Positions 35,403 through 59,976 of a stretch of DNA of 64,000 bases are shown here, piece after piece; the stretch's first letter is position 1; the number at the start of each line of letters is the position of its first letter. The position numbers and the translations under genes are program-made. The stretch is from a virus (lineage: Duplodnaviria; Caudoviricetes), in the IMG/VR virus record IMGVR_UViG_3300031867_000049, positions 274 to 64,273 of that record, one strand, 5' to 3'. Under the pieces are notes generated by a model. It had not been told where the DNA came from. It saw nothing but the letters and a program-made list of their open reading frames with translations, and did no database searches.

Positions 35403-35605
35403 CGAAGGAGCATGCTGTGGCTCCGGACGAGAAGATGCTAGAGGAACTATATGAGCTTCTTGGGTTATATTTTGGGATAGAGATCGGAAACGGCATAGTA
35501 AAGCCGGGAGAACGAGTAGACATAGAACCTCAGCTTGACAGGGTTATATTTCGTGAAGAGATTCTCGCACGGATTACAGCGCTGATAGTAGGAGGTGAGA
35601 AATAA
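35375..35605 (+). CDS. Hypothetical protein
   Basis: Tiles after xis; possible GTG start at 35417 after AAGGAG. Confidence 0.45.
   Translation: MAEKQTSYVTKEHAVAPDEKMLEELYELLGLYFGIEIGNGIVKPGERVDIEPQLDRVIFREEILARITALIVGGEK
35564..35591 (+). promoter_or_regulatory. Phage promoter motif copy 1
   Basis: CTCGCA-cggatt-ACA-gcgctga-TAGT|AG. Confidence 0.75.
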
Positions 35606-35823
35606 TGAATAAGACTCTTTATGTATTAATCGTGATTGATGACTGCGTGTATCAACCTAGTATTGTGGGGATATTCGAAACTGAGCAGGACGCTAAAAAC
35701 GTAATTGAGCGAATTGAACAGAACGAACACTCTGAATTAGGTCATGCATGCTTGGAAATCGAGAAGCACGAACTTAATGCTATTGATGAGGAATTACTTG
35801 GTTATAATAATCTCTTTATCTAA
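35605..35823 (+). CDS. Early cassette protein, hypothetical
   Basis: RBS AGGAGGT starting at motif +1. Confidence 0.75.
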   Translation: MNKTLYVLIVIDDCVYQPSIVGIFETEQDAKNVIERIEQNEHSELGHACLEIEKHELNAIDEELLGYNNLFI

Positions 35824-35844
35824 AAATCGTGAGGTCTACATGGC

Positions 35845-35872
35845 CTCGCATTTTTTGCAACCTCTAGTATAG
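35845..35872 (+). promoter_or_regulatory. Phage promoter motif copy 2 (fused with terminator hairpin 35829-35856)
   Basis: CTCGCA-tttttt-GCA-acctcta-GTAT|AG. Confidence 0.8.
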
Positions 35873-35885
35873 GAGGTGAGAAATA

Positions 35886-36176
35886 ATGAATAAATACACA
35901 AAAAAGCAGCAAGAGCAAATAAACATGTGGTCAAAAGTGGAAGAAGAACTTACTAATAAACTTATAGAAGTAAATGAGGAATTACGCATATTATACGGTC
36001 ATAGTATGAATATTTATAATAGCGATGAAATTCTCGAATTTACTGATTTAAGAAAAAAGATAGTAAATAGACTTCATTTTGCAAGTAAACGACGTGAAGA
36101 AGCAATGCAAGCAAAAACTTTGTATGAAAAAAAGAAAATGGAACTCGCCGAGATAAAAGAAAAATGGGGCTTTTAA
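35886..36176 (+). CDS. Early cassette protein, coiled-coil hypothetical
   Basis: RBS + ORF between motif copies. Confidence 0.75.
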   Translation: MNKYTKKQQEQINMWSKVEEELTNKLIEVNEELRILYGHSMNIYNSDEILEFTDLRKKIVNRLHFASKRREEAMQAKTLYEKKKMELAEIKEKWGF

Positions 36177-36190
36177 TAGCCTCTTTTTTT
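36166..36190 (+). terminator. Cassette terminator
   Basis: GGGGC-ttttaata-GCCTC + T7. Confidence 0.7.
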
Positions 36191-36216
36191 CGCATAATGA
36201 ACAACCTCTAGTATAG
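36189..36216 (+). promoter_or_regulatory. Phage promoter motif copy 3
   Basis: TTCGCA-taatga-ACA-acctcta-GTAT|AG. Confidence 0.8.
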
Positions 36217-36229
36217 GAGGTGAATAGAT

Positions 36230-36436
36230 ATGATTCTAAATATTTTAAACACTTATGACGAATTAAATGATTGCACTAAAGAAGAACTAATAAAAATGGT
36301 AATTGCATTAGATCAGGTTGCTGATGAAGCAAAAAATACAATCAACAAATTGACCGATTGCAATAACGCATTATTAGGTGAACTTGGATATGATGATTTA
36401 AAAGTAAGTCAAAGGTTAGAATGGAAGGAATGTTAA
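36230..36436 (+). CDS. Early cassette protein, hypothetical
   Basis: RBS + ORF. Confidence 0.75.
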   Translation: MILNILNTYDELNDCTKEELIKMVIALDQVADEAKNTINKLTDCNNALLGELGYDDLKVSQRLEWKEC

Positions 36437-36467
36437 AAACCTATGAAAATCGCGAGGCATACAAGTC

Positions 36468-36495
36468 CTCGCATTTTTTACAGCCTCTATAATAG
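36468..36495 (+). promoter_or_regulatory. Phage promoter motif copy 4 (fused with hairpin 36452-36479)
   Basis: CTCGCA-tttttt-ACA-gcctcta-TAAT|AG. Confidence 0.8.
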
Positions 36496-36511
36496 CAGGA
36501 GGTATAAAACT

Positions 36512-36697
36512 ATGAATAAAGCAGTTATATTTAGATTTATTGCAGGCTTAATGCTTGTAGCACAGGGAATAGAGTTAGGAAGAACCCTAACGACTAGGAA
36601 ATATTGCTACGATGCAGAAAAGTACGGACATGGAATCATAACGTACACTGATATTCACGGTGTAGATCACCATGCAGTAGTAGAGGCTTATAAATAG
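36512..36697 (+). CDS. Early cassette protein with N-terminal hydrophobic segment
   Basis: Start refined to ATG36512 after AGGAGGT. Confidence 0.7.
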   Translation: MNKAVIFRFIAGLMLVAQGIELGRTLTTRKYCYDAEKYGHGIITYTDIHGVDHHAVVEAYK

Positions 36698-36709
36698 CCT
36701 CTATTTTTT
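36682..36709 (+). terminator. Cassette terminator
   Basis: AGAGGCT-tataaat-AGCCTCT + AT6. Confidence 0.75.
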
Positions 36710-36735
36710 CGCATTTTTTACATCTTTCTTAATAG
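36708..36735 (+). promoter_or_regulatory. Phage promoter motif copy 5
   Basis: TTCGCA-tttttt-ACA-tctttct-TAAT|AG. Confidence 0.8.
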
Positions 36736-36753
36736 AAAGGAAGGTGACTTATC

Positions 36754-37008
36754 ATGAAGGAATATAAAGTAAGTCTTGATATTAAATGTAGTTCTAAAAA
36801 TGAGGCATCGGACATAAAACGAATGATTACTGAATTGGGAGTCGAGTTTGGATATAGGAATTTGGAGATTGCTATATGCAAACCGTTAATCGATGATACG
36901 TATATGATTTCGGTTCAAACCGACGCTAAAACAAAAAAGAAGATTATTAAATATTTAGGATTAACAAAAGAACGTAAAGGTATATCACTATTCGTAATGG
37001 GGGCTTAG
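36754..37008 (+). CDS. Early cassette protein, hypothetical
   Basis: RBS + ORF. Confidence 0.75.
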   Translation: MKEYKVSLDIKCSSKNEASDIKRMITELGVEFGYRNLEIAICKPLIDDTYMISVQTDAKTKKKIIKYLGLTKERKGISLFVMGA

Positions 37009-37022
37009 GCCCTCTATTTTTT
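36999..37022 (+). terminator. Cassette terminator
   Basis: GGGGGC-ttag-GCCCTC + T-tract. Confidence 0.7.
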
Positions 37023-37048
37023 CGCACGAAACACATGTTCTATTATAG
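37021..37048 (+). promoter_or_regulatory. Phage promoter motif copy 6
   Basis: TTCGCA-cgaaac-ACA-tgttcta-TTAT|AG. Confidence 0.8.
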
Positions 37049-37060
37049 GAGGTGATAGAC

Positions 37061-37171
37061 ATGTTAAAAGGTTATTATGTACCGGCAGGATATATGGGCT
37101 GGGTTGGCAATGGATGGATGCTATTCGCAACCGAACAGGATTATTATGAGTATATGAATAGGAGTTTATAA
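37061..37171 (+). CDS. 36-aa microprotein MLKGYYVPAGYMGWVGNGWMLFATEQDYYEYMNRSL
   Basis: Hand-translated (below track cut-off); RBS AGGAGGT. Confidence 0.75.
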   Translation: MLKGYYVPAGYMGWVGNGWMLFATEQDYYEYMNRSL

Positions 37172-37172
37172 A

Positions 37173-37301
37173 ATGGACGAACATAAATACTTGATAAGAG
37201 ATGATTGGAAATGGATAGCAAGAGCAGCCAAAGTCACCAGAATTATATTCTACCCTATATTACTAATTTGGCATCTATTTGATCCAGAAGTAGAGCTCTA
37301 A
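37173..37301 (+). CDS. 42-aa putative membrane microprotein
   Basis: Hand-translated MDEHKYL...IIFYPILLIWHLFDPEVEL; RBS AGGAG. Confidence 0.55.
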   Translation: MDEHKYLIRDDWKWIARAAKVTRIIFYPILLIWHLFDPEVEL

Positions 37302-37318
37302 CAAGGGCTCTTTTTTTT
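37292..37318 (+). terminator. Cassette terminator
   Basis: AGAGCTCT-aaca-AGGGCTCT + T-tract. Confidence 0.75.
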
Positions 37319-37346
37319 CTCGCACCAAAAACACCTCGGTTAGTAG
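37319..37346 (+). promoter_or_regulatory. Phage promoter motif copy 7
   Basis: CTCGCA-ccaaaa-ACA-cctcggt-TAGT|AG. Confidence 0.8.
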
Positions 37347-37359
37347 GAGGTACACTATT

Positions 37360-37716
37360 ATGAACATTAACGAACTTAAAACAAAAGCTAATGTAAAAAT
37401 CACAGGCTGGAAGTGGAAGGCCAAGGTAAAGACTCAGGAGATTAAGAAATGGTGTAAAGAGAATCCTGAATCTGCACTGATTATTGGCGGAGGAATTCTT
37501 GGAGCAGCGAAATATATTGGAAAAGCTGCAATCAAGAGATCCAACATCAATAAGGAAGAGCAGATCAAGACTCATTACTGCTATGACAGATCTTTAGGTC
37601 ATTACTGGTCATTGAAACGCGAGCTTACGAACAGAGAATGGCTTGAGATTGACAAAAGGAAACGTGATGGAGAAAAAATGGCAGACATCCTGGATAGTAT
37701 GAAAGTACTGAAATAA
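37360..37716 (+). CDS. Early cassette protein with Gly/Ala-rich hydrophobic segment
   Basis: ALIIGGGILGAAKYIG; RBS. Confidence 0.8.
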   Translation: MNINELKTKANVKITGWKWKAKVKTQEIKKWCKENPESALIIGGGILGAAKYIGKAAIKRSNINKEEQIKTHYCYDRSLGHYWSLKRELTNREWLEIDKRKRDGEKMADILDSMKVLK

Positions 37717-37738
37717 GAAATCGCGAGGGCAATATGCT

Positions 37739-37766
37739 CTCGCATTTTTTTCAGCCCCTAATATAG
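37739..37766 (+). promoter_or_regulatory. Phage promoter motif copy 8 (fused with hairpin 37723-37751)
   Basis: CTCGCA-tttttt-TCA-gccccta-ATAT|AG. Confidence 0.75.
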
Positions 37767-37778
37767 GAGGTGAAAGAA

Positions 37779-38162
37779 ATGAATATACGAATTTTAGAAA
37801 GGAAACTGCCAGCAGAAATTAAGTACACTAAACGGAATCCTAATGAAACAAAATTCATGACACTCGACGAACTTAATAATGATTTTATCGTTTTACAATG
37901 GTCGAAAACGAGTCTTATGGTTTCTGAAGATTTAGCTAATGGATTATTTAACACCAGCAAAATTGGTGAAAAAGGTAATAGAATAGTATTTCTTGAAGAG
38001 ATTTTAGAGATTATTTTCGGCATAGATGTGGATCTTGATAAACCATATTATTATGAAGAAGGTGAAAGAATTGAATGGGATTATGAATTAATAGGGCTTA
38101 AAACTGGATCGGTATTTATTGAAAGAGCATATGTAATTAGATTTCATCCAACACATTATTAA
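37779..38162 (+). CDS. Early cassette protein, hypothetical
   Basis: RBS + ORF; start refined. Confidence 0.75.
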   Translation: MNIRILERKLPAEIKYTKRNPNETKFMTLDELNNDFIVLQWSKTSLMVSEDLANGLFNTSKIGEKGNRIVFLEEILEIIFGIDVDLDKPYYYEEGERIEWDYELIGLKTGSVFIERAYVIRFHPTHY

Positions 38163-38166
38163 AAGT

Positions 38167-38196
38167 AGGAGGCGCAATGCCTCTTATTTTTTTTTT
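38167..38196 (+). terminator. Cassette terminator
   Basis: AGGAGGC-gcaat-GCCTCTT + T-tract. Confidence 0.75.
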
Positions 38197-38222
38197 CGCA
38201 CTGGATACATGCTCTCTAATGA
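38195..38222 (+). promoter_or_regulatory. Phage promoter motif copy 9
   Basis: TTCGCA-ctggat-ACA-tgctctc-TAAT|GA. Confidence 0.8.
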
Positions 38223-38256
38223 AAGTTATAGGCAGCTATTAGAAAGGAGAAATGAT

Positions 38257-38736
38257 ATGGCTGAAATGTATAACGAAGCTTATGAAGGCGAGTTATTTAT
38301 TACTGAAGGTTTGGACGATGAAGTAGAAAGATACAACCTACTTGAAGATGGGACCGAAAAGAAATTAAATGCCGCTAAAGCGCTGCAAATAAGGCACACA
38401 CTTGGAATCGAAGAGTTTAAAGCCGGTCAGCAGGCAGAAGACATGGCAGAACGCAGACAACTTGAGCGTGAAAGATTAGAACTGGAGCGTGCAAAGATGG
38501 AAGCAGAAGCTGATGAACGAGCTATGCAGGCTAGAGCAGAAGCAAAACGAGAAAAGTTTAGAAACGGAGTAGCGATTGGCGGATTTATATTCACAGGAGC
38601 CCTTCAGATAATAGGACTTGTATTGGATCATGGACATGCGTTCCAGGATACTATCAGGAATAGAAACGCTGAAAATGAAGCGAAGGATACAAGAAGAGCT
38701 TTAGAAAGATTAACTGACAGAATAGCAAACCGCTAA
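38257..38736 (+). CDS. Coiled-coil protein with C-terminal TM
   Basis: Start refined after AAAGGAG; GVAIGGFIFTGALQIIGLVL. Confidence 0.75.
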   Translation: MAEMYNEAYEGELFITEGLDDEVERYNLLEDGTEKKLNAAKALQIRHTLGIEEFKAGQQAEDMAERRQLERERLELERAKMEAEADERAMQARAEAKREKFRNGVAIGGFIFTGALQIIGLVLDHGHAFQDTIRNRNAENEAKDTRRALERLTDRIANR

Positions 38737-38742
38737 CTTTAA

Positions 38743-38781
38743 ATGGGGAGTTCGTGTTAAATACATGGGCTCTCATTTTTT
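38743..38781 (+). terminator. Cassette terminator
   Basis: ATGGGGAGTTCGTGT-taaat-ACATGGGCTCTCAT + T-tract. Confidence 0.7.
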
Positions 38782-38807
38782 CGCATATTTTACACCTCGG
38801 ATTATAG
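38780..38807 (+). promoter_or_regulatory. Phage promoter motif copy 10
   Basis: TTCGCA-tatttt-ACA-cctcgga-TTAT|AG. Confidence 0.8.
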
Positions 38808-38820
38808 GAGGTACAAAGAT

Positions 38821-39072
38821 ATGATTAGACGTAAAAAATACAACAAAAACGTAAATCTACCAATGGATCGAGAAGAGAAACTTGTAAAGGATGTTTGGGA
38901 TGATGTTGCGGAAATGATGATGTCATTACAGGAACTCGAGGGAGATGAAGAAGTAATAGAACATATTGCTGATGGAATCCACGAGTTAGCTGATTTGATA
39001 GAAGCAATCGCATATCAGGGGCAACTCCCTAAGAAACTTAAAAGACCATGGAGAATAAAGGAAATGAGCTAA
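38821..39072 (+). CDS. Early cassette protein, acidic hypothetical
   Basis: RBS + ORF. Confidence 0.75.
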   Translation: MIRRKKYNKNVNLPMDREEKLVKDVWDDVAEMMMSLQELEGDEEVIEHIADGIHELADLIEAIAYQGQLPKKLKRPWRIKEMS

Positions 39073-39123
39073 TAGTTATATTTGAGTATTATTAACCGCG
39101 GGGCTAACATGGCCTCGTATTTT

Positions 39124-39151
39124 TTCGCATGCTTTACAGGTTCTATAGTAG
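39124..39151 (+). promoter_or_regulatory. Phage promoter motif copy 11
   Basis: TTCGCA-tgcttt-ACA-ggttcta-TAGT|AG, preceded by hairpin 39098-39118 and T-tract. Confidence 0.8.
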
Positions 39152-39195
39152 AAATAACACTGTTATTGTAAAGTATATTCAAAGGAGGAACTAAT

Positions 39196-39510
39196 ATGGA
39201 TACTCGTAAGAATTATGAAGAACTTGGAATGGCAATAGTCGAACAGGCAGCGACGGACTACCACAATGCAAGATTCTTTCTTGAAACTGAAGACTTGAGG
39301 TCATATAAAGATACTGCAAGTAAAAACAGTAGACATAATATGGCGAAAAAGACTTTGGCGGAAATAGAAAGTTTCTTTCATAGTGAATGGTTTCGAACAG
39401 TATGCCCGGATCTTGACGGAAAAAAAGCATTTGAAGCTTTGAAAGAAACTTACGACAGAGAAGTTAGGGACGATAAAATGGAAAAATTTATGCGTAACAG
39501 AAATAATTAA
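39196..39510 (+). CDS. Conserved phage hypothetical protein
   Basis: YEELGMAIVEQAATDY...EIESFFHSEWF; RBS AAGGAGG. Confidence 0.8.
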   Translation: MDTRKNYEELGMAIVEQAATDYHNARFFLETEDLRSYKDTASKNSRHNMAKKTLAEIESFFHSEWFRTVCPDLDGKKAFEALKETYDREVRDDKMEKFMRNRNN

Positions 39511-39516
39511 GAATAT

Positions 39517-39550
39517 GAGTTCTTGTAGAAATACAAGGACTCTATTTTTT
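39517..39550 (+). terminator. GAAA-tetraloop terminator with no promoter after it
   Basis: GAGTTCTTGTA-gaaa-TACAAGGACTC + T-tract. Confidence 0.8.
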
Positions 39551-39555
39551 GCCTT

Positions 39556-39894
39556 ATGAAATACTACTACGAAAAACCAACTGAATACACCGTTACAAAA
39601 GCTAAGACGATCCATACGGATGATAAGTTATATTCTGAATGCACTCTTTATGAGGTTGATGGTAAAGGACTCAAAGTAGTGCAGCTCAGATTCAACCCCA
39701 AGCTAAAAGTTTTCTTTTACGGCCCAATAAATCCTTGGCTTATTGATGATATTTTCTCCAGAGAAGGATTTTTAGAAAACCTCTCAGATCCTCCGTATCC
39801 TACTATGACCGTACGGACGCTTATGTGGAAACTTCGGATGAAACCCCTTAAAAAAGAATGGTGGGAAAACTCGCAAATTTTACATAGTAGATAA
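39556..39894 (+). CDS. Hypothetical protein
   Basis: 112-aa ORF; no clear RBS. Confidence 0.6.
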   Translation: MKYYYEKPTEYTVTKAKTIHTDDKLYSECTLYEVDGKGLKVVQLRFNPKLKVFFYGPINPWLIDDIFSREGFLENLSDPPYPTMTVRTLMWKLRMKPLKKEWWENSQILHSR

Positions 39895-39897
39895 TGA
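39870..39897 (+). promoter_or_regulatory. Phage promoter motif copy 12
   Basis: CTCGCA-aatttt-ACA-tagtaga-TAAT|GA, inside 3' end of upstream ORF. Confidence 0.75.
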
Positions 39898-39926
39898 AAA
39901 GTACAGGAGAATTGAGGAGGTGTATT

Positions 39927-40136
39927 ATGAATAACAACATTAAGAATTATGTGTTACTTTACCTTATGCTTATGAAGGCACATGCAGAACTAGTAGTAGA
40001 TATAGTTAAAAATAGTTACGGCAAGACTAAATTGCTGAACCTATTATTAGCTATACCATTTCTGGTTCACTCAGTATTCTATAACATTTGGTGGATAATA
40101 AAATTCGGAAAAAAGTATAAGCCAATCTTTGATTAA
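39927..40136 (+). CDS. Small membrane protein
   Basis: RBS GAGGAGG; hydrophobic segments. Confidence 0.7.
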   Translation: MNNNIKNYVLLYLMLMKAHAELVVDIVKNSYGKTKLLNLLLAIPFLVHSVFYNIWWIIKFGKKYKPIFD

Positions 40137-40145
40137 ATGTATTGC

Positions 40146-40175
40146 ATAAAGGTCGAACAACGGCCTTTATTTTTT
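40146..40175 (+). terminator. Cassette terminator
   Basis: ATAAAGGTCG-aacaa-CGGCCTTTAT + T-tract. Confidence 0.75.
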
Positions 40176-40201
40176 CGCAAATATTACAGCCCATATAATG
40201 A
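40174..40201 (+). promoter_or_regulatory. Phage promoter motif copy 13
   Basis: TTCGCA-aatatt-ACA-gcccata-TAAT|GA. Confidence 0.8.
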
Positions 40202-40232
40202 AAAATACCGGAGATCATGAAAGGAGAAAATC

Positions 40233-40544
40233 ATGGGTATTGTTAATAAAATAAGGGCGATTAGAAAAGGAACAGAGAAAGTTAAAGATTTTGATAACGC
40301 AAAGACAGAAAAACACAATGTTCATTATTCGAGATATATAGCATCTTGGATTAATGCTGGTGGAGATTTGTCAACGTTAGACGGATGGTACAGCTTTGCA
40401 TTTTGGCTGGATACACTTGGACTGACGGCTGATGAAATCTATCACATTAGAGTGATGGCTACAAACGGAAAACTTGAACTTGAAAATTCTGCAAAAGAAT
40501 TTATCAAAAGAGCAAACGAGATTTCTCTCGGACTTAAGGGCTAA
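40233..40544 (+). CDS. Early cassette protein, hypothetical
   Basis: RBS AAAGGAG + ORF. Confidence 0.8.
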   Translation: MGIVNKIRAIRKGTEKVKDFDNAKTEKHNVHYSRYIASWINAGGDLSTLDGWYSFAFWLDTLGLTADEIYHIRVMATNGKLELENSAKEFIKRANEISLGLKG

Positions 40545-40562
40545 TCAGCCCTTTTATTTTTT
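40536..40562 (+). terminator. Cassette terminator
   Basis: AAGGGCT-aatc-AGCCCTT + T-tract. Confidence 0.75.
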
Positions 40563-40588
40563 CGCATTTTTTACATCTACTATAATGG
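40561..40588 (+). promoter_or_regulatory. Phage promoter motif copy 14
   Basis: TTCGCA-tttttt-ACA-tctacta-TAAT|GG. Confidence 0.8.
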
Positions 40589-40621
40589 AACGTAGTGCTA
40601 AGAAGTGAAAGGAGTACGGAA

Positions 40622-40774
40622 ATGAAAAAAGCACTCATAATTACAACACTGGCTTATGAAGTAGCGTATATAGTAGTAGCTATATATGCACTGAAGAATC
40701 CGGAGAAGTATGGTGAATGGAATGCTAAATTTATTGGCAGTATGACAAGCACACTTGAGAAACTAGGTTTATAA
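40622..40774 (+). CDS. 50-aa membrane microprotein
   Basis: Hand-translated MKKALIITTLAYEVAYIVVAIYALK...; RBS AAAGGAG. Confidence 0.65.
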   Translation: MKKALIITTLAYEVAYIVVAIYALKNPEKYGEWNAKFIGSMTSTLEKLGL

Positions 40775-40789
40775 AGGAGGAAGAATCAA

Positions 40790-40903
40790 ATGATGACAGT
40801 ATGGAATGTAATTAAAGGTATATGCACGATTACTGGAGCATACGTTTGGATCAAAGCAATCAAAGAAACGATTGAAGAATACAACGAAGCTCCAGAGAAG
40901 TAA
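40790..40903 (+). CDS. 37-aa microprotein
   Basis: Hand-translated MMTVWNVIKGICTITGAYVWIKAIKE...; RBS AAGGAGG. Confidence 0.6.
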   Translation: MMTVWNVIKGICTITGAYVWIKAIKETIEEYNEAPEK

Positions 40904-40923
40904 ATATAGCTAAAGCAAGCCAT

Positions 40924-40950
40924 AGGGGAGCCATTTGGTTCCTCTTTTTT
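40924..40950 (+). terminator. Cassette terminator
   Basis: AGGGGAGCC-attt-GGTTCCTCT + T5. Confidence 0.75.
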
Positions 40951-40963
40951 CTCTGAACATATG

Positions 40964-40991
40964 TTCGCAAAATTTACATCTTCTTTAATGA
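40964..40991 (+). promoter_or_regulatory. Phage promoter motif copy 15
   Basis: TTCGCA-aaattt-ACA-tcttctt-TAAT|GA. Confidence 0.8.
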
Positions 40992-41016
40992 GAAATCAGA
41001 AAAGGAGGATGGACTG

Positions 41017-41184
41017 ATGATATCGTTTGAATTAATATTATACGTTATAGTTTATGGATTTGAATTCTTCATACTCGCACTGATGGGTATAGGATTATTC
41101 GGATTTATATGCGGTAAGTTTAATAATGAGACGTTACAGGCGGTTCACGACTACATATTCGTGATTGACGACGAGGAGCTTTAA
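41017..41184 (+). CDS. 55-aa membrane microprotein
   Basis: Hand-translated MISFELILYVIVYGFEFFILALMGIGLFGFICG...; RBS AAGGAGG. Confidence 0.65.
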   Translation: MISFELILYVIVYGFEFFILALMGIGLFGFICGKFNNETLQAVHDYIFVIDDEEL

Positions 41185-41198
41185 GGCTCCTTTTTTTT
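41174..41198 (+). terminator. Terminator with no promoter after it
   Basis: AGGAGC-tttaag-GCTCCT + T7. Confidence 0.75.
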
Positions 41199-41212
41199 CT
41201 AAGGAGGAAGAA

Positions 41213-41443
41213 ATGGGAAACGATCTTAATAATAGGCCATATGAACAGCCACGCTTAATGCATGTCTATTTAACATCGGGAAGACCGGAACTTATATTTG
41301 GATACCCATCGGCAATAGCCCAAATGATGCGGGTGATGTATGGCTATGATAGTTTAAAGGCTGTAAGGGTTTTGAAATTATGGAAGCCGACAGAGGTAAC
41401 GCGATATGAAGCGCAGTCATCATGGTCATCTACGCTAGGATAA
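41213..41443 (+). CDS. Hypothetical protein
   Basis: RBS AAGGAGG; start refined. Confidence 0.6.
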   Translation: MGNDLNNRPYEQPRLMHVYLTSGRPELIFGYPSAIAQMMRVMYGYDSLKAVRVLKLWKPTEVTRYEAQSSWSSTLG

Positions 41444-41458
41444 AAAAGGTGAAGAATT

Positions 41459-41782
41459 ATGAAGCAACTTTTATATGTGTATAGCTGGGACCCGACCAGA
41501 AGAAAGATACATGAGTACACAGGTTATTATTACCCAGCTTGGCCTGCGCCACTTCTTACACGACTGCCAGATGCGCATGATACGTGGTTCAGAAAGATAC
41601 CAGAACATTGCGGCGAGTTCTATGGAAATGCAGTATGGTTTTTGGAACCTAATCCTAAAAAGGCGCAACTTATATTTATTGAAGCTGAGCTTAAGAAGAT
41701 AGACGCATGCAAAGAAATTATAAGAAAAGGAGAAGAAAACATACGATATTTGTCGTCATATACATATGAAGAAGAATATTAG
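41459..41782 (+). CDS. Hypothetical protein
   Basis: Tiles in operon. Confidence 0.65.
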   Translation: MKQLLYVYSWDPTRRKIHEYTGYYYPAWPAPLLTRLPDAHDTWFRKIPEHCGEFYGNAVWFLEPNPKKAQLIFIEAELKKIDACKEIIRKGEENIRYLSSYTYEEEY

Positions 41783-41792
41783 AATCCTTATT

Positions 41793-41820
41793 CTCGCAGT
41801 ATTTACAACCTATGTTATAG
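41793..41820 (+). promoter_or_regulatory. Phage promoter motif copy 16
   Basis: CTCGCA-gtattt-ACA-acctatg-TTAT|AG. Confidence 0.8.
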
Positions 41821-41837
41821 CAAAGGAGGTAAATGCT

Positions 41838-42122
41838 ATGAAGATTTTTGACAACTCAGAAAGATGGTACCTAATTAGAATGACACAGGAAGGTGCATTG
41901 AAATGGACGTCAATTCTGAATCAGAGATATGCTAATGGGCATTTTGCGCTTGTAACAACGCAGGAGACCTATTCGGACAATGTTGAAGAGATCAGGAAAA
42001 GAGATGTGATATTTCACTTGTACACCACGCCTAGAGACATGAAGGCATTAGAAGTACTACTGAAAGATTTTATAGTCAAATATGGAGAATTGGCAAAACC
42101 AGTAAAGGCAGAGGTTAGATGA
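41838..42122 (+). CDS. Early cassette protein, hypothetical
   Basis: RBS AAGGAGGT; start refined. Confidence 0.75.
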   Translation: MKIFDNSERWYLIRMTQEGALKWTSILNQRYANGHFALVTTQETYSDNVEEIRKRDVIFHLYTTPRDMKALEVLLKDFIVKYGELAKPVKAEVR

Positions 42123-42131
42123 TAACCGATA

Positions 42132-42165
42132 AGAAGGTCAGCGAAAGTTGGCCTTTTATTTTTTT
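42132..42165 (+). terminator. GAAA-tetraloop terminator with no promoter after it
   Basis: AAGGTCAGC-gaaa-GTTGGCCTT + T-tract. Confidence 0.8.
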
Positions 42166-42188
42166 AACTTTTGAAAGGAGCAACTAAA

Positions 42189-42446
42189 ATGGCAAACTAC
42201 ACACCGAGACAGAAGAGCGAGATCGAGTACCTTATCAATAAGGGGAAGGCAGTCTATAAAAGACTCACAAATAAAAAGAATATGGCTGAATCAGAAAAGC
42301 TTAATGATGAGCTCAACCAGATCAAGATGCAGCTTAATGAAGCTCTTAATGCAGAGGCTATGTATAGAGCGCATCTTAGAGCAGCCGAAGAGCATATCAG
42401 AGCAGCTGAAGCGCTTAGAGATAAATGGGTGAAAGGAGAAATGTAA
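42189..42446 (+). CDS. Coiled-coil hypothetical protein
   Basis: RBS AAAGGAG; start refined. Confidence 0.7.
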   Translation: MANYTPRQKSEIEYLINKGKAVYKRLTNKKNMAESEKLNDELNQIKMQLNEALNAEAMYRAHLRAAEEHIRAAEALRDKWVKGEM

Positions 42447-42613
42447 TGGATTATATTTTTAAGGAAGTCTATTTCGACAATTTTTGTGCAAAATGCGTGC
42501 ATAAGGAAAAAGAAGAATGGGAAGAGCCATGTGATGAATGTCTGGAAAATCCCGTAAATGAATATTCTCACACACCTGTAAAATTTGTTTTGAAAGAAGG
42601 AAAAGATGATTAA
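42446..42613 (+). CDS. Small Cys-rich (Zn-binding) protein
   Basis: CAKCVH...CDEC. Confidence 0.65.
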   Translation: MDYIFKEVYFDNFCAKCVHKEKEEWEEPCDECLENPVNEYSHTPVKFVLKEGKDD

Positions 42614-43215: not shown

Positions 43216-43227
43216 AGGAGAGAAAAG

Positions 43228-43828: not shown

Positions 43829-43844
43829 TAGAAAGGAGCAATAA

Positions 43845-45231: not shown

Positions 45232-45245
45232 GTAGGTGATTATAT

Positions 45246-50466: not shown

Positions 50467-50507
50467 AAAAGGCGAAGGGGTTTCAGCTCCTTTGCTTTTT
50501 ATTTTTT
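50467..50507 (+). terminator. Cassette terminator
   Basis: AAAAGGCGAAGGGG...CTCCTTTGCTTTTT + T-tract. Confidence 0.65.
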
Positions 50508-50533
50508 CGCAGTTTTTACAACCCATATTATAG
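50506..50533 (+). promoter_or_regulatory. Phage promoter motif copy 19
   Basis: TTCGCA-gttttt-ACA-acccata-TTAT|AG. Confidence 0.8.
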
Positions 50534-52242: not shown

Positions 52243-53079
52243 ATGGTTTTTGAGACTGTGGGTAAAATTGGTCTGATGGTAGGAAAAAGTCTCTCTAAGG
52301 GCAAATTTTGGGCTTGTAAGCATGCTCCAGAGCTACTACAGATAGCAGGCACGGCTGGAGTGATTGGAACAGCTGCTTTGGCATGCAAAGGAACCAAGGA
52401 AATAATGGAAAAAGAAGAGCCTGAAGTAAAGGATTATGCTAAGGCGTATGCGCCTACGGCTATTTGCGGTATCGGCACTGTTGGATGCTTTACGGGCGGA
52501 CATTATATTCTGAAGAAGAGAAATATTGCTCTCGCATGTGCATATAAAATGATCGATGACAGCTACAAAAATTACAGGAGTAATGTCATCGAGAAATACG
52601 GCGAGGAAGAAGACTTCAGACTTAAAAATAATGTGCATACAGAGAAAATCGCTGTTACTGAAGTCGGTGAAGATGGTAAAAAGCATAAGAAAAAGGTCGA
52701 TGTAGATATCCTTGATGATGATCCTGATGCATACACATTTATATATGATGATAAGCACTCGATGAAAAGCGTCATTGATTCCGTCACAGCAAGAAATGAC
52801 CTTGTGATAGCTGAAAATAATGCCAATAGAATTCTTCTTGGAAGAGGATATATTACTCTTAATGAGGTTCTAAGAGGTCTTGGCCTTCATGAAACATCGG
52901 TAGGTCAGATCGTAGGCTGGCAGACAAAAGGAAATGGTGACGGATATGTTAAATTAAATGTTAAGCAAATAAGAACTGCTATGGATCCTGAAGGTGTAGC
53001 ATTTGCTGTTGAATTTAATGTCGATGGGCCTATTTATCAGGATATCGATAAATACACAAGAATGTGGGGTGAGCAGTAG
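52243..53079 (+). CDS. DUF6353-like protein (paralogue 3)
   Basis: KHAPELL.IAG..GVIG.A..A.KGT; AN.IL..RGYITLNEV...LG....GW...EFNVDG. Confidence 0.75.
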   Translation: MVFETVGKIGLMVGKSLSKGKFWACKHAPELLQIAGTAGVIGTAALACKGTKEIMEKEEPEVKDYAKAYAPTAICGIGTVGCFTGGHYILKKRNIALACAYKMIDDSYKNYRSNVIEKYGEEEDFRLKNNVHTEKIAVTEVGEDGKKHKKKVDVDILDDDPDAYTFIYDDKHSMKSVIDSVTARNDLVIAENNANRILLGRGYITLNEVLRGLGLHETSVGQIVGWQTKGNGDGYVKLNVKQIRTAMDPEGVAFAVEFNVDGPIYQDIDKYTRMWGEQ

Positions 53080-54424: not shown

Positions 54425-57400
54425 ATGTATGATTTCTTTAAAATTTGCACTAAAGAAGTCGAAAAAAGAGGCAGATTGGAGTCCGTGACAATATATCCTA
54501 AGTTCATTATTAATGGCCGCTCTAAAGATCTTATGATACGGGGCGGCGATTTTTATGCAGTTTGGGATGTTGATGCAGGGCTTTGGTCTACCGAGGAAGA
54601 TACAGTTAGTGAGATAATAGACCGCGAAATAAGAAAAACGGTCGAGGAGCTAAAGAATAAATACCCGGAGACGGTGAAAATAGTACCACAATATATGTGG
54701 GACTCGGATTCCGGCAGTATTGACAAATGGCATAAATATGTTCAGAAGCAATTACGTGATAGATATGTCCAGCTGGATAATAAAGTTATCTTTCAGAATA
54801 CTGATGTCAAAAAAGAAGACTACGCCAGTAAGAAATTAGGATACTCGATAGTTGAATCTGAGATACCTGCTTACGACGAACTTATGTCGACATTATATTC
54901 CGATGATGAAAGAGCTAAATTAGAATGGGCTATTGGGTCAATAATAAATGGTGACTCGAAACATATTCAGAAGTTTATAGTTTTGTATGGTTCAGCAGGA
55001 ACAGGAAAGTCGACAGTACTGAATATTATTCAGGAACTATTTGATGGATATTGTGCTACGTTTAATGCTAAGTCTTTAGCTTCTTCAAATAATGATTTTG
55101 CGCTTGAAGATTTTAAGTCCAATCCTCTAATTGCTATTCAGCATGATGGTGATTTAAGCAGAATCGCTGATAATACAAAATTAAACAGCATTGTATCTCA
55201 TGAAACTATGGTGGTGAATGAGAAATTCAAAAGCAAATACAGTGCTAAGTTTGATTCGTTCATATTTATGGGCACAAATAAGCCGGTTAAAATAACGGAA
55301 GCAAGATCCGGACTTTTAAGAAGGCTTATCGATGTAAGACCCACCGGTGAGAAATTGTCATTTACAAAATACAATAGGCTTACAAAAGCTATTAAATATG
55401 AGCTTGGTGGAATCGCATATCATTGCCTGAAAGTTTATGAGGATATGGGTGAGGATTATTACAACAGCTATATTCCAAAAGATATGATGTCAGTAACAAA
55501 TGATTTCTACGACTTTATCGATGAATATCTTGATCAGTTTATGGTGAAAGATCCAATGCTTTTAACCTGGGCATGGACAAAGTATAAGGAATATTGTGAA
55601 TCAGCGAACATATCTTATCCAATGCCAAGAAAGAATTTTAAAGAGGAGCTTAAGAACTACTATAAAAGGTATGATGACCGAACAAGAATTGATGGAGAGT
55701 ATAACCGGAATGTATATTCGGACTTTAAGTACAATATGTTTATCGGTGGTACTGAGAAAAAACAAGAAGTAGATAGCGAGTTTGAATTAAAAGAACAGCC
55801 ATCTATTTTTGATTCTTATTGTTCCGGTTGTCCTGCACAGTATGCTTCTAAAAGAGAAACACCACTTAAGAAATGGGACGATGTTACTACCAAGCTTGAG
55901 GATATTGATACTTCGCAGCTTCATTATGTGAAACTACCAGAGAATCATATTGTTATTGATTTTGATCTAAAAGATGATAATGGCGAGAAATGCTTTGAAA
56001 AGAATTTAAAGGCTATTTCAAACTGGCCGGCAACATATGCTGAAGTAAGTAAAGGTGGAGCCGGAATTCATTTGCATTACATCTATGATGGTGATACATC
56101 GAAGCTTAGCAGCATATTTGCACCTAATATCGAGGTGAAAACATTTCTTGGGAAGTCATCATTAAGAAGAAAGCTGACAAAATGCAATAATCTTCCGATA
56201 GCGCATATTAATTCGAATCTTCCACTAAAGGAGGAGAAAGTGGTTAATTATGACATAGTGAAAGACGAGAAGCATCTTCGGAATATTATTAAGAAATGCC
56301 TTAAAAAAGAGAATCATGGCGCCACTGCACCGGAAATCGATCTTATTAAGAAAGTTCTTGACGATGCGTATAATTCCGGAATGGAATATGACGTGTCTGA
56401 TATGAAGCAAAACGTTATGGCTTTTGCTATTAAAAGCACCCATCAGGCACAGAAATGTATGAAACAAGTCCGGAATATGCATTTTATGTCTGAAGATAAA
56501 GAGGTCGAGGCAACGAGTTTATCAGATAATCAATATAAATCTGACAAGCTCGTCTTTTTTGATGTGGAAGTATTTCCTAATTTCTTCGGAGTATGCTGGA
56601 AATTCGAGGATGATGAGCATGTGACTAAGATGTTTAATCCTACACCTGAAGAGATACGAGATATTCTGGATTACAAATTAGTAGGCTTTAATAACCGAAG
56701 ATATGATAACCATATTCTTTATGCAAGGCTGCAAGGATTTAGCAATGCAGAATTATTTAATTTGTCGCAGAGGATTGTCGATAAAGGTGACAAAAATGCA
56801 TTTTTTAGAGAAGCATACAACTTGTCATATACTGACATCTATGATTTCGCTGCTACAAAGCAGAGCCTAAAGAAGTGGGAAATAGAACTTGGCATACACC
56901 ATCAGGAATTAGGAATGAAATGGGATGAGCCAGTTCCTGAAGAAATGTGGGATCTTGTCATGGATTATTGTGCAAACGATGTAATTGCAACAGAAGCTGT
57001 ATTTAAGCATTTAAGTGCTGACTTCGAAGCCAGGGAAATATTATGTGCAATAACAGGTAGTTCGCTGAATACAACTACAAATCAGAATACAACAAAATTG
57101 ATTGTTGGAAATGATAAAAATCCACAAAGTTCATTTGTTTATACTGATTTAAGTGAAATATTTCCTGGATATACGTTTGAAAATGGCAAATCCATATATA
57201 AAGGTGAAGAAGTTGGGGAAGGAGGATATGTTTATTCAGAACCAGGAATGTATACAAATATTGCCTTACTGGATATTGCAAGTATGCATCCTAATAGTGC
57301 AATTAACCTTAACATATTTGGCCCATATACCAAGAATTTCCAAGAGCTTGTTAATGCTCGTCTTTACATTAAACACGGTGACTACGATTCTGCTGGCAAG

Positions 57401-58228
57401 CTATTTGATGGAAAGTTAAAGCCGTATCTTAAAGATAAAGACCAGGCTAAAAGATTGGCATATGCATTAAAGATAGCTATCAATTCTGTATACGGATTAA
57501 CCGCTGCCAAATTCGACAATAAATTAAGAGATCCTCGTAATGTAGATAATATCGTTGCAAAGCGAGGAGCTTTATTTATGGTCAATTTGAAAGAGGAGGT
57601 CCAGAAACGTGGATACACAGTCGCTCATATTAAAACCGATTCTATTAAGATTCCAAATGCCGATCAAAAGATTATTGATTTTGTTATGGAATATGGTAAG
57701 AAATATGGCTATACATTCGAGCATGAAGCAACATATGACAGAATGTGTCTTATCAATAAATCCGTATATATTGCCAAAGATGCAGCAGATGGGCATTGGT
57801 CAGCTACTGGTGCACAGTTCCAAGTACCATATGTCTTTAAAACATTATTCAGTCACGAGCCGATTGAGCTTAAGGATAAATGCGAAACCAAAACTGTTAC
57901 TTCTGCTTTGTATTTGGATATGAATGAAGAACTTGGTGAAGGCGAACATAATTATCAATTCGTTGGAAAAGCTGGTTCATTCTGTCCGATTAAACCGGGA
58001 TGCGGTGGCGGATTATTAATGCGTGAATCTGAAGGCAAATTTGATGCGGCAACAGGAACTAAAGGATATCGCTGGCTCGAATCTGAAACAGTGCAAGCAT
58101 TAAATAAAGAAGATGACATTGACGTATCTTATTATAACAAACTAGTTGATGAAGCTGTTTATGTTATTTCCAAATATGGAGATGCAGAATGGTTTATTTA
58201 TAGTGACGATGATGAAAGGAGCAACTAA
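54425..58228 (+). CDS. SF3 helicase - AEP primase - 3'-5' exonuclease - family B DNA polymerase fusion
   Basis: GSAGTGKST; IVIDFD and SKGGAGIHLHY; FFDVE, GFNN..YD, YCANDV; DIASMHPNS, KIAINSVYG, IKTDS. Confidence 0.9.
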   Translation: MYDFFKICTKEVEKRGRLESVTIYPKFIINGRSKDLMIRGGDFYAVWDVDAGLWSTEEDTVSEIIDREIRKTVEELKNKYPETVKIVPQYMWDSDSGSIDKWHKYVQKQLRDRYVQLDNKVIFQNTDVKKEDYASKKLGYSIVESEIPAYDELMSTLYSDDERAKLEWAIGSIINGDSKHIQKFIVLYGSAGTGKSTVLNIIQELFDGYCATFNAKSLASSNNDFALEDFKSNPLIAIQHDGDLSRIADNTKLNSIVSHETMVVNEKFKSKYSAKFDSFIFMGTNKPVKITEARSGLLRRLIDVRPTGEKLSFTKYNRLTKAIKYELGGIAYHCLKVYEDMGEDYYNSYIPKDMMSVTNDFYDFIDEYLDQFMVKDPMLLTWAWTKYKEYCESANISYPMPRKNFKEELKNYYKRYDDRTRIDGEYNRNVYSDFKYNMFIGGTEKKQEVDSEFELKEQPSIFDSYCSGCPAQYASKRETPLKKWDDVTTKLEDIDTSQLHYVKLPENHIVIDFDLKDDNGEKCFEKNLKAISNWPATYAEVSKGGAGIHLHYIYDGDTSKLSSIFAPNIEVKTFLGKSSLRRKLTKCNNLPIAHINSNLPLKEEKVVNYDIVKDEKHLRNIIKKCLKKENHGATAPEIDLIKKVLDDAYNSGMEYDVSDMKQNVMAFAIKSTHQAQKCMKQVRNMHFMSEDKEVEATSLSDNQYKSDKLVFFDVEVFPNFFGVCWKFEDDEHVTKMFNPTPEEIRDILDYKLVGFNNRRYDNHILYARLQGFSNAELFNLSQRIVDKGDKNAFFREAYNLSYTDIYDFAATKQSLKKWEIELGIHHQELGMKWDEPVPEEMWDLVMDYCANDVIATEAVFKHLSADFEAREILCAITGSSLNTTTNQNTTKLIVGNDKNPQSSFVYTDLSEIFPGYTFENGKSIYKGEEVGEGGYVYSEPGMYTNIALLDIASMHPNSAINLNIFGPYTKNFQELVNARLYIKHGDYDSAGKLFDGKLKPYLKDKDQAKRLAYALKIAINSVYGLTAAKFDNKLRDPRNVDNIVAKRGALFMVNLKEEVQKRGYTVAHIKTDSIKIPNADQKIIDFVMEYGKKYGYTFEHEATYDRMCLINKSVYIAKDAADGHWSATGAQFQVPYVFKTLFSHEPIELKDKCETKTVTSALYLDMNEELGEGEHNYQFVGKAGSFCPIKPGCGGGLLMRESEGKFDAATGTKGYRWLESETVQALNKEDDIDVSYYNKLVDEAVYVISKYGDAEWFIYSDDDERSN

Positions 58229-58722
58229 TGGAAAATAATCAGACTATTACAATTTGGGATGCTAAGCTTTATTTCAAGAACTTTGCAGGTGCAGAAGGTA
58301 GATATAACCAGAAAGGAGACAGAAACTTTGGAGTATTCATCGATGATGAAACAGCAAAGCAGCTTGAAGAAGATGGATGGAATGTAAAATACACAAAGCC
58401 GAATGAGGATGGATATCAGAGGCCTTATCTCAAAGTTAAGGTGAGCTATAAGGGTTATCAGAAGCCTAGACTTTATCTCGAGGATGAAGAAGGGCATAAG
58501 GTAATACTCAAAGAAGAAGATGTTGCAGACCTCGATGAGTATGTGTTTGACAAAATCGATCTTAAGATTCGCCATGCATATCTTAAGAATTATGATGTGT
58601 GGACACAGTATCTTGATAAAGGATATTTCGTAATGGTTGAAGACGAGATTGATAAGGCTCATGGAAATAATCCTGCAATGTCAGGTCCTATCGAAGACGA
58701 TCTGGATGACATTCCATTTTAG
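58228..58722 (+). CDS. ssb: Single-stranded DNA-binding protein
   Basis: FKNFAG...GDRNF; acidic C-terminus DDLDDIPF. Confidence 0.8.
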   Translation: MENNQTITIWDAKLYFKNFAGAEGRYNQKGDRNFGVFIDDETAKQLEEDGWNVKYTKPNEDGYQRPYLKVKVSYKGYQKPRLYLEDEEGHKVILKEEDVADLDEYVFDKIDLKIRHAYLKNYDVWTQYLDKGYFVMVEDEIDKAHGNNPAMSGPIEDDLDDIPF

Positions 58723-58725
58723 GAG

Positions 58726-59925
58726 GTGAAAACGGTGTCCGTAGAATTATATGAACACCAAAAGCTCGCAGTTCCTAAATTAAAAAATGGATCAATATTA
58801 TGTGGCGGGGTCGGCTCTGGTAAATCCAGAACGGCCCTTGCCTATTTTTTGGAAAAGGAATTGGATGGATCATTAGAAACATTAAAAGTAAAAAAGCATA
58901 AAGACTTATATATAATAACTACTGCTAGAAAAAGAGATACTAATGAATGGCTTGATGAATGTACTCCGTTCGAATTTCCAAAAGAAATAAACATAGTTAT
59001 TGATTCTTGGAATAACATAAGAAAATATACTAATGTGTGCAATGCCTTTTTTATTTTCGATGAGCAACGAGTAGTTGGATATGGAGCATGGACAAAAGCA
59101 TTCTTGCAAATAACAAAAAAAAATCGATGGATTTTACTTAGTGCAACTCCTGGCGATACATGGTCTGACTATATTCCGGTGTTTATTGCAAATGGGTTCT
59201 ATAAGAATAAAACAGAATTTGTAAGAAGACATATTGTGTATAATCGCTTTTCTAAATTTCCAAAAGTTGATAGATACCTTGATACTGGGAGACTTATGAA
59301 ATTAAGAAAAGACATTTTGGTTAATATGAAATTTATGAAACCGACACAGGTTCATCATAAAACATTAATAGCCAAATATGACACAGCAGCATATTCTTAT
59401 GTGACAACCGAAAGAAAGAACTATTACACAAAAGAGCCATTTAAGAATATGGGAGCGCTTTGTTTGAATTTAAGACAAATAGTGAATTCCGATCAAGACA
59501 GGGTTGCGCTTCTTAGAATGCTTATTTTGCAAAATCCAAAAGTAATTGTTTTTTATAACTTTGATTATGAGTTAGAAATACTAAGAGAATTAGGAAAAGA
59601 GCTTGAAATTAAAACTGCTGAATGGAATGGGCATATTCATGAGCCGATACCAGATGAGAAATATTCTGAGTGGATGTATTTAGTTCAGTATACTGCCGGA
59701 GCCGAAGGGTGGAATTGTATAGAAACGAATGTCATAATTTTTTATTCACAAAACTATTCTTATAAAATAATGACTCAGGCGGCCGGAAGAATAGATAGAT
59801 TAAATACTCCATTTTCAGACTTGTATTATTATCATCTACGTTCTAATTCGAGCATAGATATTTCAATCATGCGGGCTTTAAGGAAAAAGAAAAATTTTAA
59901 TGCAAGCGGTTTTTCATTAGATTAA
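58726..59925 (+). CDS. SF2 (SNF2/DEAD-like) helicase
   Basis: GGVGSGKS, FDEQR, LSATPG, QAAGRIDR. Confidence 0.9.
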   Translation: MKTVSVELYEHQKLAVPKLKNGSILCGGVGSGKSRTALAYFLEKELDGSLETLKVKKHKDLYIITTARKRDTNEWLDECTPFEFPKEINIVIDSWNNIRKYTNVCNAFFIFDEQRVVGYGAWTKAFLQITKKNRWILLSATPGDTWSDYIPVFIANGFYKNKTEFVRRHIVYNRFSKFPKVDRYLDTGRLMKLRKDILVNMKFMKPTQVHHKTLIAKYDTAAYSYVTTERKNYYTKEPFKNMGALCLNLRQIVNSDQDRVALLRMLILQNPKVIVFYNFDYELEILRELGKELEIKTAEWNGHIHEPIPDEKYSEWMYLVQYTAGAEGWNCIETNVIIFYSQNYSYKIMTQAAGRIDRLNTPFSDLYYYHLRSNSSIDISIMRALRKKKNFNASGFSLD

Positions 59926-59948
59926 CATTTACAAGGCTTCTTTCAAAA

Positions 59949-59976
59949 TTCGCGCGAAAAACAAGGACTCTAATAG
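59949..59976 (+). promoter_or_regulatory. Phage promoter motif copy 20
   Basis: TTCGCG-cgaaaa-ACA-aggactc-TAAT|AG. Confidence 0.7.

Follow-up and report, generated by a model that had tools for sequence, protein, structure and literature searches.

A 27-base candidate promoter repeated on one strand of a 64-kb phage genome, and the two-barrel RNA polymerase proposed to read it

The phage record IMGVR_UViG_3300031867_000049 (Duplodnaviria; Caudoviricetes) carries in its early region many copies of one short sequence, YTCGCA-N6-ACA-N7-DWDT/R (the slash separates positions -1 and +1), raising the questions of what these copies do and, if they are promoters, which enzyme reads them. The virus record is 64,273 bases long and has a completeness rating of 100%; the stretch of DNA analyzed, hereafter the window, comprises its bases 274-64273 (64,000 nucleotides) and amounts to a complete 64-kb phage from gut or rumen. 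On the evidence of sequence, we consider it likely that all 20 copies serve as promoters for a polymerase encoded by the phage itself, a predicted single-chain, two-barrel RNA polymerase of 915 amino acids encoded on the + strand at 60849-63596.

The motif was examined using a pattern search and a weight matrix. Seventeen exact matches were found, all on the + strand, and none in 100 shuffles; the core TCGCA-N6-ACA likewise occurred 17 times, where 1.6 occurrences would be expected. A weight matrix derived from the 17 exact copies added exactly three more, at 35845 (GCA in place of ACA), 37739 (TCA), and 59949 (TCGCG in place of TCGCA). The 20th copy scored 16.3 and the next + strand match 6.5, while four minus-strand matches scored 11.8-14.1, under all 20 copies. 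The copies lie between 35564 and 59975, and the matrix found nothing convincing in the structural region (1-33.6 kb). Every copy has T at -1 and a purine at +1 (15 A and 5 G). A preliminary description of this DNA had reported 20 + strand copies with invariant spacing, TCGCA in 19 and ACA in 18 of them, boxes at -25 to -21, -14 to -12, and -4 to -1, an invariant T followed by a purine, and no copy among the structural genes; our searches, with 17 exact and three near-exact copies, bear out each of these statements. Conservation extends further, to an upstream T-run (the tail of the preceding terminator), a TTT before ACA, a C-rich stretch at -10 to -7, and purines at +2 to +4. The A+T-rich block at -6 to -1 resembles TATAAT. 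No conserved inverted repeat, as in an N4-type hairpin promoter, was found inside the motif. We also considered that the C-rich spacer might pair with the Shine-Dalgarno (SD) sequence, forming a DNA hairpin or hiding the SD sequence in read-through RNA; pairing of -14 to -5 with +1 to +12 averaged 4.3, compared with 3.97 in permuted pairs, a marginal difference (P about 0.04).

Most copies sit between an intrinsic terminator on their 5' side and a ribosome-binding site on their 3' side. Terminator-like hairpins are abundant between 33.5 and 51 kb (34, relative to 9.6 expected), and about 12 strong + strand terminators end a few bases before a copy, so that the terminator T-run continues into TTCGCA. 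Downstream, AGGAGG begins at the predicted +1 in nine copies, eight of which have the start codon at +15 or +16. The remaining copies have leaders of up to 49 nucleotides (nt), except for copy 17, which heads a tRNA-like gene.

Individual copies, all on the + strand, illustrate this arrangement. Copy 1 (35564-35590) has its +1 at A35590, the first base of AGGAGG, ahead of an open reading frame (ORF) that starts at 35605. Copy 2 (35845-35871), with GCA in box 2 and +1 at A35871, is likewise flush with its SD sequence, and a terminator at 35829-35849 overlaps its 5' edge. The SD sequence is also flush with +1 at copy 3 (36189-36215; terminator 36166-36183 directly upstream), copy 6 (37021-37047; terminator 36999-37014 upstream), copy 7 (37319-37345; terminator 37292-37311 upstream), copy 8 (37739-37765; TCA in box 2; terminator 37723-37743), copy 10 (38780-38806; terminator 38746-38774 upstream), and copy 18 (50159-50185). 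It lies at +4 in copies 4 (36468-36494) and 5 (36708-36734), and at +5 in copy 16 (41793-41819). Transcripts would begin with G at copies 9 (38195-38221; 36-nt leader), 12 (39870-39896), 13 (40174-40200), 14 (40561-40587), and 15 (40964-40990), all of which except copy 12 have a terminator listed upstream, at 38161-38191, 40146-40170, 40536-40553, and 40924-40945, respectively. Copy 11 (39124-39150) has a 46-nt leader and follows a terminator at 39098-39118. Farther to the right, copy 17 (48001-48027) has its +1 at A48027, position 1 of the tRNA-like gene; copy 19 (50506-50532; terminator 50467-50500 upstream) heads a 9.4-kb replication operon that encodes a primase-polymerase, an annealing protein, and a helicase; and copy 20 (59949-59975), with TCGCG in box 1 and +1 at A59975, lies about 900 nt upstream of the polymerase gene.

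The five G-start copies (TAATG) fall together within 38195-40990. Leaders are long (27-36 nt) in four of the five; at most A-start copies the SD sequence is flush with +1. G-start and A-start copies may represent two promoter classes.

Where would transcription begin at these sites? As the AGGAGG sequences stand at canonical distance from their start codons, they must be contained in the RNA, so the start should be at or before the purine that follows the invariant T; this is a matter of sequence logic, not of mapped 5' ends. The first base of the tRNA-like gene (48027-48096, + strand) is the predicted +1 of copy 17; ARAGORN recognizes this gene, and the Rfam tRNA model (RF00005) matches it from end to end (positions 1-71) with 55.8 bits. 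Its anticodon loop is odd, with ARAGORN giving a 4-base anticodon (gaaa) and no amino-acid assignment. TCGCA and the TATAAT-like block are separated by 14 nt in all 20 copies, rather than by the 16-18 nt of sigma-70 or sigmaA promoters, and if transcription began 5-9 nt beyond TATAAT, the first transcribed base would be within or past AGGAGG at nine copies and within the tRNA acceptor stem at copy 17. Further, a scan for sigma-70-type promoters (16-18-nt spacer) recovered none of the 20 copies; its 39 matches compare with 51.8 expected from shuffles, and matches were at or below the shuffle level in every part of the genome. The remaining claims of the preliminary description therefore stand as well: the purine is the first base of AGGAGG at many sites (nine), of the tRNA-like gene at 48027, and of a hairpin stem at 59975, and a sigmaA reading would require a 14-nt spacer and a start within or beyond the ribosome-binding site. 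Its preference for a phage enzyme over sigmaA gains support from the sigma scan, from this start-site logic, and from two results described below, the occurrence of the motif across phages and the gene content of contigs selected by motif.

The candidate enzyme is the 915-amino-acid protein, which matches phrog_4291 over its full length (E = 0). Pfam places an RdRP domain at residues 512-635, with a score of 24.5 against a cutoff of 23.8, and several helix-turn-helix (HTH) families match at residues 76-130 and 875-914. An AlphaFold model, computed on an alignment of homologues, has a mean predicted local distance difference test (pLDDT) score of 78.7. Its best Foldseek matches are Neurospora QDE-1 (E = 7e-9), plant RDR2, the RNA polymerases P74 gp62 and P32 gp64 of Thermus phages, P23-45 gp96, and then Pol II Rpb1; a sequence search of the PDB returned no match, and it was the fold search alone that gave these. 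The catalytic loop GADFDGD (residues 519-525), which contains the DxDGD signature, is invariant in 22 homologues. By its modelled fold, the protein is a single-chain two-barrel RNA polymerase of the QDE-1/YonO/P23-45 type, in agreement with an HHpred-based prediction for the family by Koert et al. (bioRxiv 10.1101/842583). Helical, HTH-like modules flank the catalytic core at residues ~45-200 and ~840-914, and their putative recognition helices contain near-invariant residues (E112, S113, V115, and R116; G892, T894, A899, G903, and T908). The first 31 residues are disordered in the model yet conserved. Among the window proteins scanned, no T7-type (Pol I-like single-subunit) polymerase was found, and the two-barrel gene was the only polymerase-like one.

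Homologues with 39-54% identity are encoded by 250 GenBank phages, nearly always at the right genome end, whose hosts include Arthrobacter, Gordonia, Streptomyces, Rhodococcus, Curtobacterium, Lactococcus, and Faecalibacterium. Species-representative bacterial genomes add another 308 loci with the gene, of which many belong to Lachnospiraceae and other Clostridia, including the isolates [Ruminococcus] torques ATCC 27756 and Hungatella hathewayi. Family members are still mostly annotated as 'HTH DNA-binding protein'.

The motif accompanies this gene. In all nine polymerase-bearing relatives examined, the same boxes occur at the same spacing, on the strand that encodes the polymerase and grouped within the corresponding early region. 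For instance, Lactococcus phage 1706 has 12 sites, in which box 1 is YCRCA, followed by N6-ACA-N7-TAGT/A; Streptomyces phage RosaAsantewaa has 6 (TCGCA in five, TCGCG in one); and Rhodococcus phage ReqiPoco6 has 15-16 (TCGCA). The other six are IMG/VR contigs: G002 (13 sites, mostly TCGCG), G004 (10 sites; TCGCA in four, TCGCG in two), G005 (8 sites, TCGYA), G008 (13 sites and none on the other strand, ACGCG), G012 (about 20 sites, box 1 degenerate), and G015 (8 sites, TCGCA). Natural box 1 variants in the family include TCGCA, TCGCG, ACGCG, TCGTA, and CCACA. When 125 sites were pooled, C-24, G-23, C-22, C-13, T-4, T-1, and a purine at +1 were near-invariant, and +2 and +3 were purines. The motif was found independently by plain k-mer counts in 1706 and in ReqiPoco6 and G015, and by a simple pattern together with a k-mer count in RosaAsantewaa.

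We also performed the reverse test, scanning a viral collection for TCGCA-N6-ACA-N5-TATAATG alone in contigs of at least 30 kb and then seeking the polymerase. It was present in 42 of the 50 contigs selected by motif, and in 24 of the 25 that were at least 90% complete. In the best 80 of the 308 bacterial loci, a loose form of the motif had 106 occurrences on the strand of the polymerase gene and 11 on the opposite strand. The motif is thus real, strand-specific, and placed between terminator and gene signals, and its boxes and their spacing are the same wherever the polymerase gene occurs, in phages whose hosts belong to two phyla. The 915-amino-acid polymerase is the only obvious transcription component common to the motif-bearing phages of Lactococcus, Clostridia, Streptomyces, and Rhodococcus. 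No copy able to drive late genes was found near the genome ends; a ReqiPoco6 match at 77900 lacks the -4 to -1 block.

We postulate the following sequence of events. The polymerase would bind duplex DNA at TCGCR (-25 to -21) and ACA (-14 to -12), two boxes that lie 10 bp apart and hence on one face of the helix, and these boxes would probably be read by the HTH modules fused to its N- and C-termini. It would then melt the A+T-rich, TATAAT-like block (-6 to -1) and start at the purine after the invariant T, proceeding into the purine-rich +1 to +4. Each small early gene would form a separate cassette of terminator, promoter, SD sequence, and ORF, with copies 16-20 heading longer units; copy 20 would fire straight into a hairpin terminator ahead of the nuclease and polymerase operon, forming a gate.

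The points at which related contigs from rumen and gut change from one cassette to another coincide exactly with promoter copies (window 35400-42400), with joints from 37318 to 40571 and from 36697 to 37011, and loose ends of related contigs fall at 37333, 37341, and 40557-40591. The repeated promoter is apparently a crossover point for the shuffling of small early genes.

Three other explanations of the sites were weighed. One is that they are promoters of the host polymerase used by sigma appropriation, in which sigmaA would read TATAAT as a -10 element, a phage activator bound at TCGCA (centred near -29) would replace the -35 contact, and transcripts would start 6-8 nt after TATAAT. The TATAAT-like block is indeed a perfect -10 consensus, and at its 14-nt spacing TCGCA occupies the place of the MotA box of T4 middle promoters, in which a conserved box likewise stands in for the -35 element, 14 nt upstream of a hexamer resembling the -10. 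Those promoters, however, are used by the host polymerase with a start ~7 nt past the -10, and such a start is at odds with where the SD sequences and the tRNA lie in this phage: at nine genes the start would be inside or after AGGAGG, and at copy 17 inside the acceptor stem. The relatives speak on both sides. In actinophages the SD sequence is further downstream, far enough to permit a start 6-7 nt after TATAAT, and the ReqiPoco6 tRNA, the only tRNA found behind the promoter among the relatives checked, begins 7 nt past the predicted +1 (at +8), that is, 7 nt after TATAAT, a position compatible with both start readings; in addition, the motif of Gordonia phage Vardy was read as a sigma-70 -10 box (PMC9671010). 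Against this, the motif tracks the polymerase gene, and it is the same in phages whose hosts (Clostridia, Lactococcus, Streptomyces, and Rhodococcus) differ in their promoter preferences. The window's sole protein with sigma region 4 (45492-46157) had no homologue detected in five motif-bearing relatives, in a search made without a positive control. On balance, we regard sigma appropriation as improbable.

We give still less credence to the possibility that the sites are not start sites at all, and are instead operators of a repressor or regulator or junctions for the exchange of modules between phages. The swapping of cassettes exactly at motif copies in related rumen contigs would fit junctions, and a temperate phage must silence its early genes somehow, as operators would allow; recombination at repeated promoters, though, is the expected by-product of having many copies, and an operator need not be flush with an SD sequence or the 5' end of a tRNA. 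The strict single orientation, the fixed position between terminator and SD sequence, and the A+T-rich block ending at an invariant T-purine step fit a start site, and otherwise some 20 terminator-insulated genes would be left without any other promoter. The third alternative accepts that the phage polymerase uses these promoters and proposes that a separate specificity factor, encoded by phage or host, recognizes them in place of the fused HTH modules. Multisubunit phage polymerases, such as that of AR9, do use a separate promoter-recognition subunit. How YonO finds its promoter was not resolved by its discoverers, who left a helper open (PMC5467207). HTH modules are nonetheless kept at both ends of the protein across the family, their near-invariant recognition-helix residues paralleling the conserved boxes, and no other DNA-binding gene common to all relatives was found (one candidate was checked); we therefore consider a separate factor unlikely.

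Recognition of the sites by the phage's own polymerase remains the explanation that we favor, and several points besides the actinophage leaders and the ReqiPoco6 tRNA weigh against it. We infer the pairing of enzyme and promoter from sequence and a structural model, and both the exact +1 and independence from a helper factor are predictions of the same kind. Part of the search for sites in relatives used a matrix that had been seeded from the window, so that the 125-site consensus is biased in the window's favor. The available RNA data are short metatranscriptome contigs (four aligned, as short pieces inside genes), which cannot show starts. Finally, some 5.7 kb of genes (42190-47900) that come after a strong terminator at 42132-42157 have no promoter copy, and their transcription must depend on read-through or another signal; as these and the structural genes lack copies, the signal does not cover all transcription.

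Within this copy-free interval, the 221-amino-acid protein encoded at 45492-46157 combines sigma-70 region 4 (residues 40-85) with an RNA polymerase alpha C-terminal domain (residues 130-185). Because the search of five motif-bearing relatives described above detected no homologue of this protein, we rejected it as the reader of the motif; its target may be the host polymerase.

Copy 20 differs from the others in what follows it. An 8-bp hairpin with a T-run (59975-60006, + strand) begins at its +1, ahead of the nuclease and polymerase operon. The same succession, a promoter copy with a hairpin and T-run beginning at +1 to +3, was found at 45 copies in related prophage loci of Clostridia and other bacteria, and the conserved promoter-terminator pair precedes the polymerase gene by roughly 900-1400 nt (loci L187-L265, positions ~8560-9100). 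The hairpin may be a gate that requires antitermination, as in lambda PR'-tR', where a promoter is likewise followed at once by an intrinsic terminator before an operon leading into late genes; in contrast to the lambda gate, which depends on Q, no Q-like factor was identified here, and the polymerase is the phage's own. Alternatively, the hairpin may be a terminator for upstream transcripts, with the start placed inside its stem. Because this latter reading would favor a start further downstream, the gate was not counted as evidence for +1.

Is the polymerase carried into the cell? We are evenly divided on whether the virion contains the enzyme and ejects it together with the DNA, which would let early transcription proceed without the host polymerase. 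Delivery of this kind is plausible because the 1706 homologue, orf75, was labelled 'structural protein' by its depositors, who left most other genes 'unknown' (as read from the GenBank records alone); the same label on the ReqiPoco6 homologue was copied from 1706. The gene lies at the genome's extreme right end, adjoining cos in relatives. In the window, the polymerase N-terminus shares an ELxHYG core with three DUF7211 proteins encoded among the head genes, and in relatives the first 30-75 residues of the polymerase match small proteins encoded elsewhere in the genome (E = 1e-9 to 3e-6), so this N-terminal leader may be a packaging or cleavage signal. The resemblance in the window is confined to the short ELxHYG core; Pfam found no DUF7211 match in the polymerase N-terminus even at E = 10. 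Two considerations argue against such delivery. Since this phage encodes an integrase and has prophages as relatives, induction would need another source of the first enzyme, and the polymerase's own operon lies behind a promoter of the same type.

The three DUF7211 proteins (1027-2214, 4037-4654, and 4657-5055) are rich in Lys and Arg and carry a ..L.HYGVKGMKW.. leader; the corresponding polymerase N-terminus is encoded at 60849-60940.

The layout of the genome is as follows. Structural and lysis genes occupy 1-33.6 kb, followed by a tyrosine integrase gene on the minus strand (33888-34994) and a run of small genes (35.5-50.5 kb). The replication module comes next, with the primase-polymerase (54425-58228), annealing protein, and helicase, and then two nucleases and the 915-amino-acid polymerase gene, which adjoins the right end. 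This is the gene order of Lactococcus phage 1706 and Streptomyces phage RosaAsantewaa. A megablast search of the early region against a phage collection gave no match. Three paralogous DUF6353 genes are found in the middle region (48132-48989, 49260-50135, and 52243-53079).

The genome ends (window 63940-64000; record bases 1-30) resemble the cos ends of Rhodococcus phage ReqiPoco6, the right end reading …CCCCCCTC.CTGCATCGC.GCCCT and the left …TCCGGGGG…, which suggests, from sequence likeness, that the cos region has been kept across host phyla. In addition, the octamer [TG][TG]ATATTT, mostly as TTATATTT or TGATATTT and often with G next, is the most strand-biased 8-mer of the genome, with 51 sites on the + strand and 3 on the minus strand (window 9553-58628). 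Its sites are largely intragenic, fall in all three frames, encode varied peptides, and are spaced by ~1.25 kb; the octamer is also enriched in the related gut contigs G008, G002, and G012. A role as a polar DNA signal, for instance a Chi-like sequence or a primase site, is conceivable but speculative.

The proposed promoters share several properties with those of T7, T3, and SP6: they are compact (~25 bp), would need no sigma factor, and have an upstream specificity region, an A+T-rich block (TATA) reaching to -1, a purine start with purine-rich first bases, and many copies pointing one way. The enzyme here is unrelated, however, having a two-barrel rather than a Pol I-like fold; the boxes and their sequences differ, and recognition is probably by fused HTHs. 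Closer in catalytic-fold superfamily are P23-45 gp96 (virion) and gp64 (non-virion), SPbeta YonO, and gp66 of the crAss-like phage phi14:2, for which phage-specific motifs lie upstream of early genes, and among which virion delivery is established for P23-45 gp96 and phi14:2 gp66. For P23-45, the motifs co-occur with the enzyme among relatives, the same argument as that made here, and there it is backed by mapped transcription start sites (PMC10770324). The present protein differs from these polymerases in that it has no PDB sequence match and has terminal HTH modules, which do not appear in their descriptions. Further, published accounts of the P23-45 motifs characterize them simply as AT-rich and GC-rich, whereas in the present family a single tripartite motif of 27 bp has been conserved in phages whose hosts span two phyla.

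Our literature search found no paper that links the motif to the polymerase. The nearest report is that of Gordonia phage Vardy (cluster DJ), in which five copies of a 50-bp intergenic motif containing TATAAT were described mid-genome and given the sigma-70 interpretation mentioned above (PMC9671010). Compared by description, this is probably the same element, in a polymerase-bearing relative; that announcement makes no link to a phage polymerase and does not describe the upstream boxes, the spacing, or the cross-phylum conservation.

Taken to its full extent, the proposal is of a self-contained system. The polymerase of 915 amino acids, brought into the virion by means of its N-terminal leader, would read its own 27-bp tripartite promoter through fused HTHs, with no sigma factor or host enzyme, and would direct the entire early programme of a temperate siphovirus. 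A promoter-terminator gate would stand before both the polymerase operon and the late genes, and the promoter code (CGC at -24 to -22, C-13, T-1, and a purine start) would have been kept from phages of Actinobacteria to those of Clostridia. We advance this fuller version tentatively and with some doubt.

The family offers a defined 27-bp candidate promoter together with an enzyme that has candidate built-in DNA-reading modules; for YonO, the promoter sequence was left undetermined, and the way in which enzymes of its type find promoters was left open (PMC5467207). The natural variants of box 1 could reveal a recognition code. The family is also common, occurring in classroom-isolated phages of Arthrobacter, Gordonia, and Streptomyces, in the dairy phage 1706, and in many gut Lachnospiraceae. 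If true, the pairing would correct the sigma-70 reading of these sites and would provide a small orthogonal polymerase-promoter pair for Gram-positive bacteria. With a motif that travels with the polymerase in phages of very different bacteria, an uncharacterized transcription system becomes directly testable.

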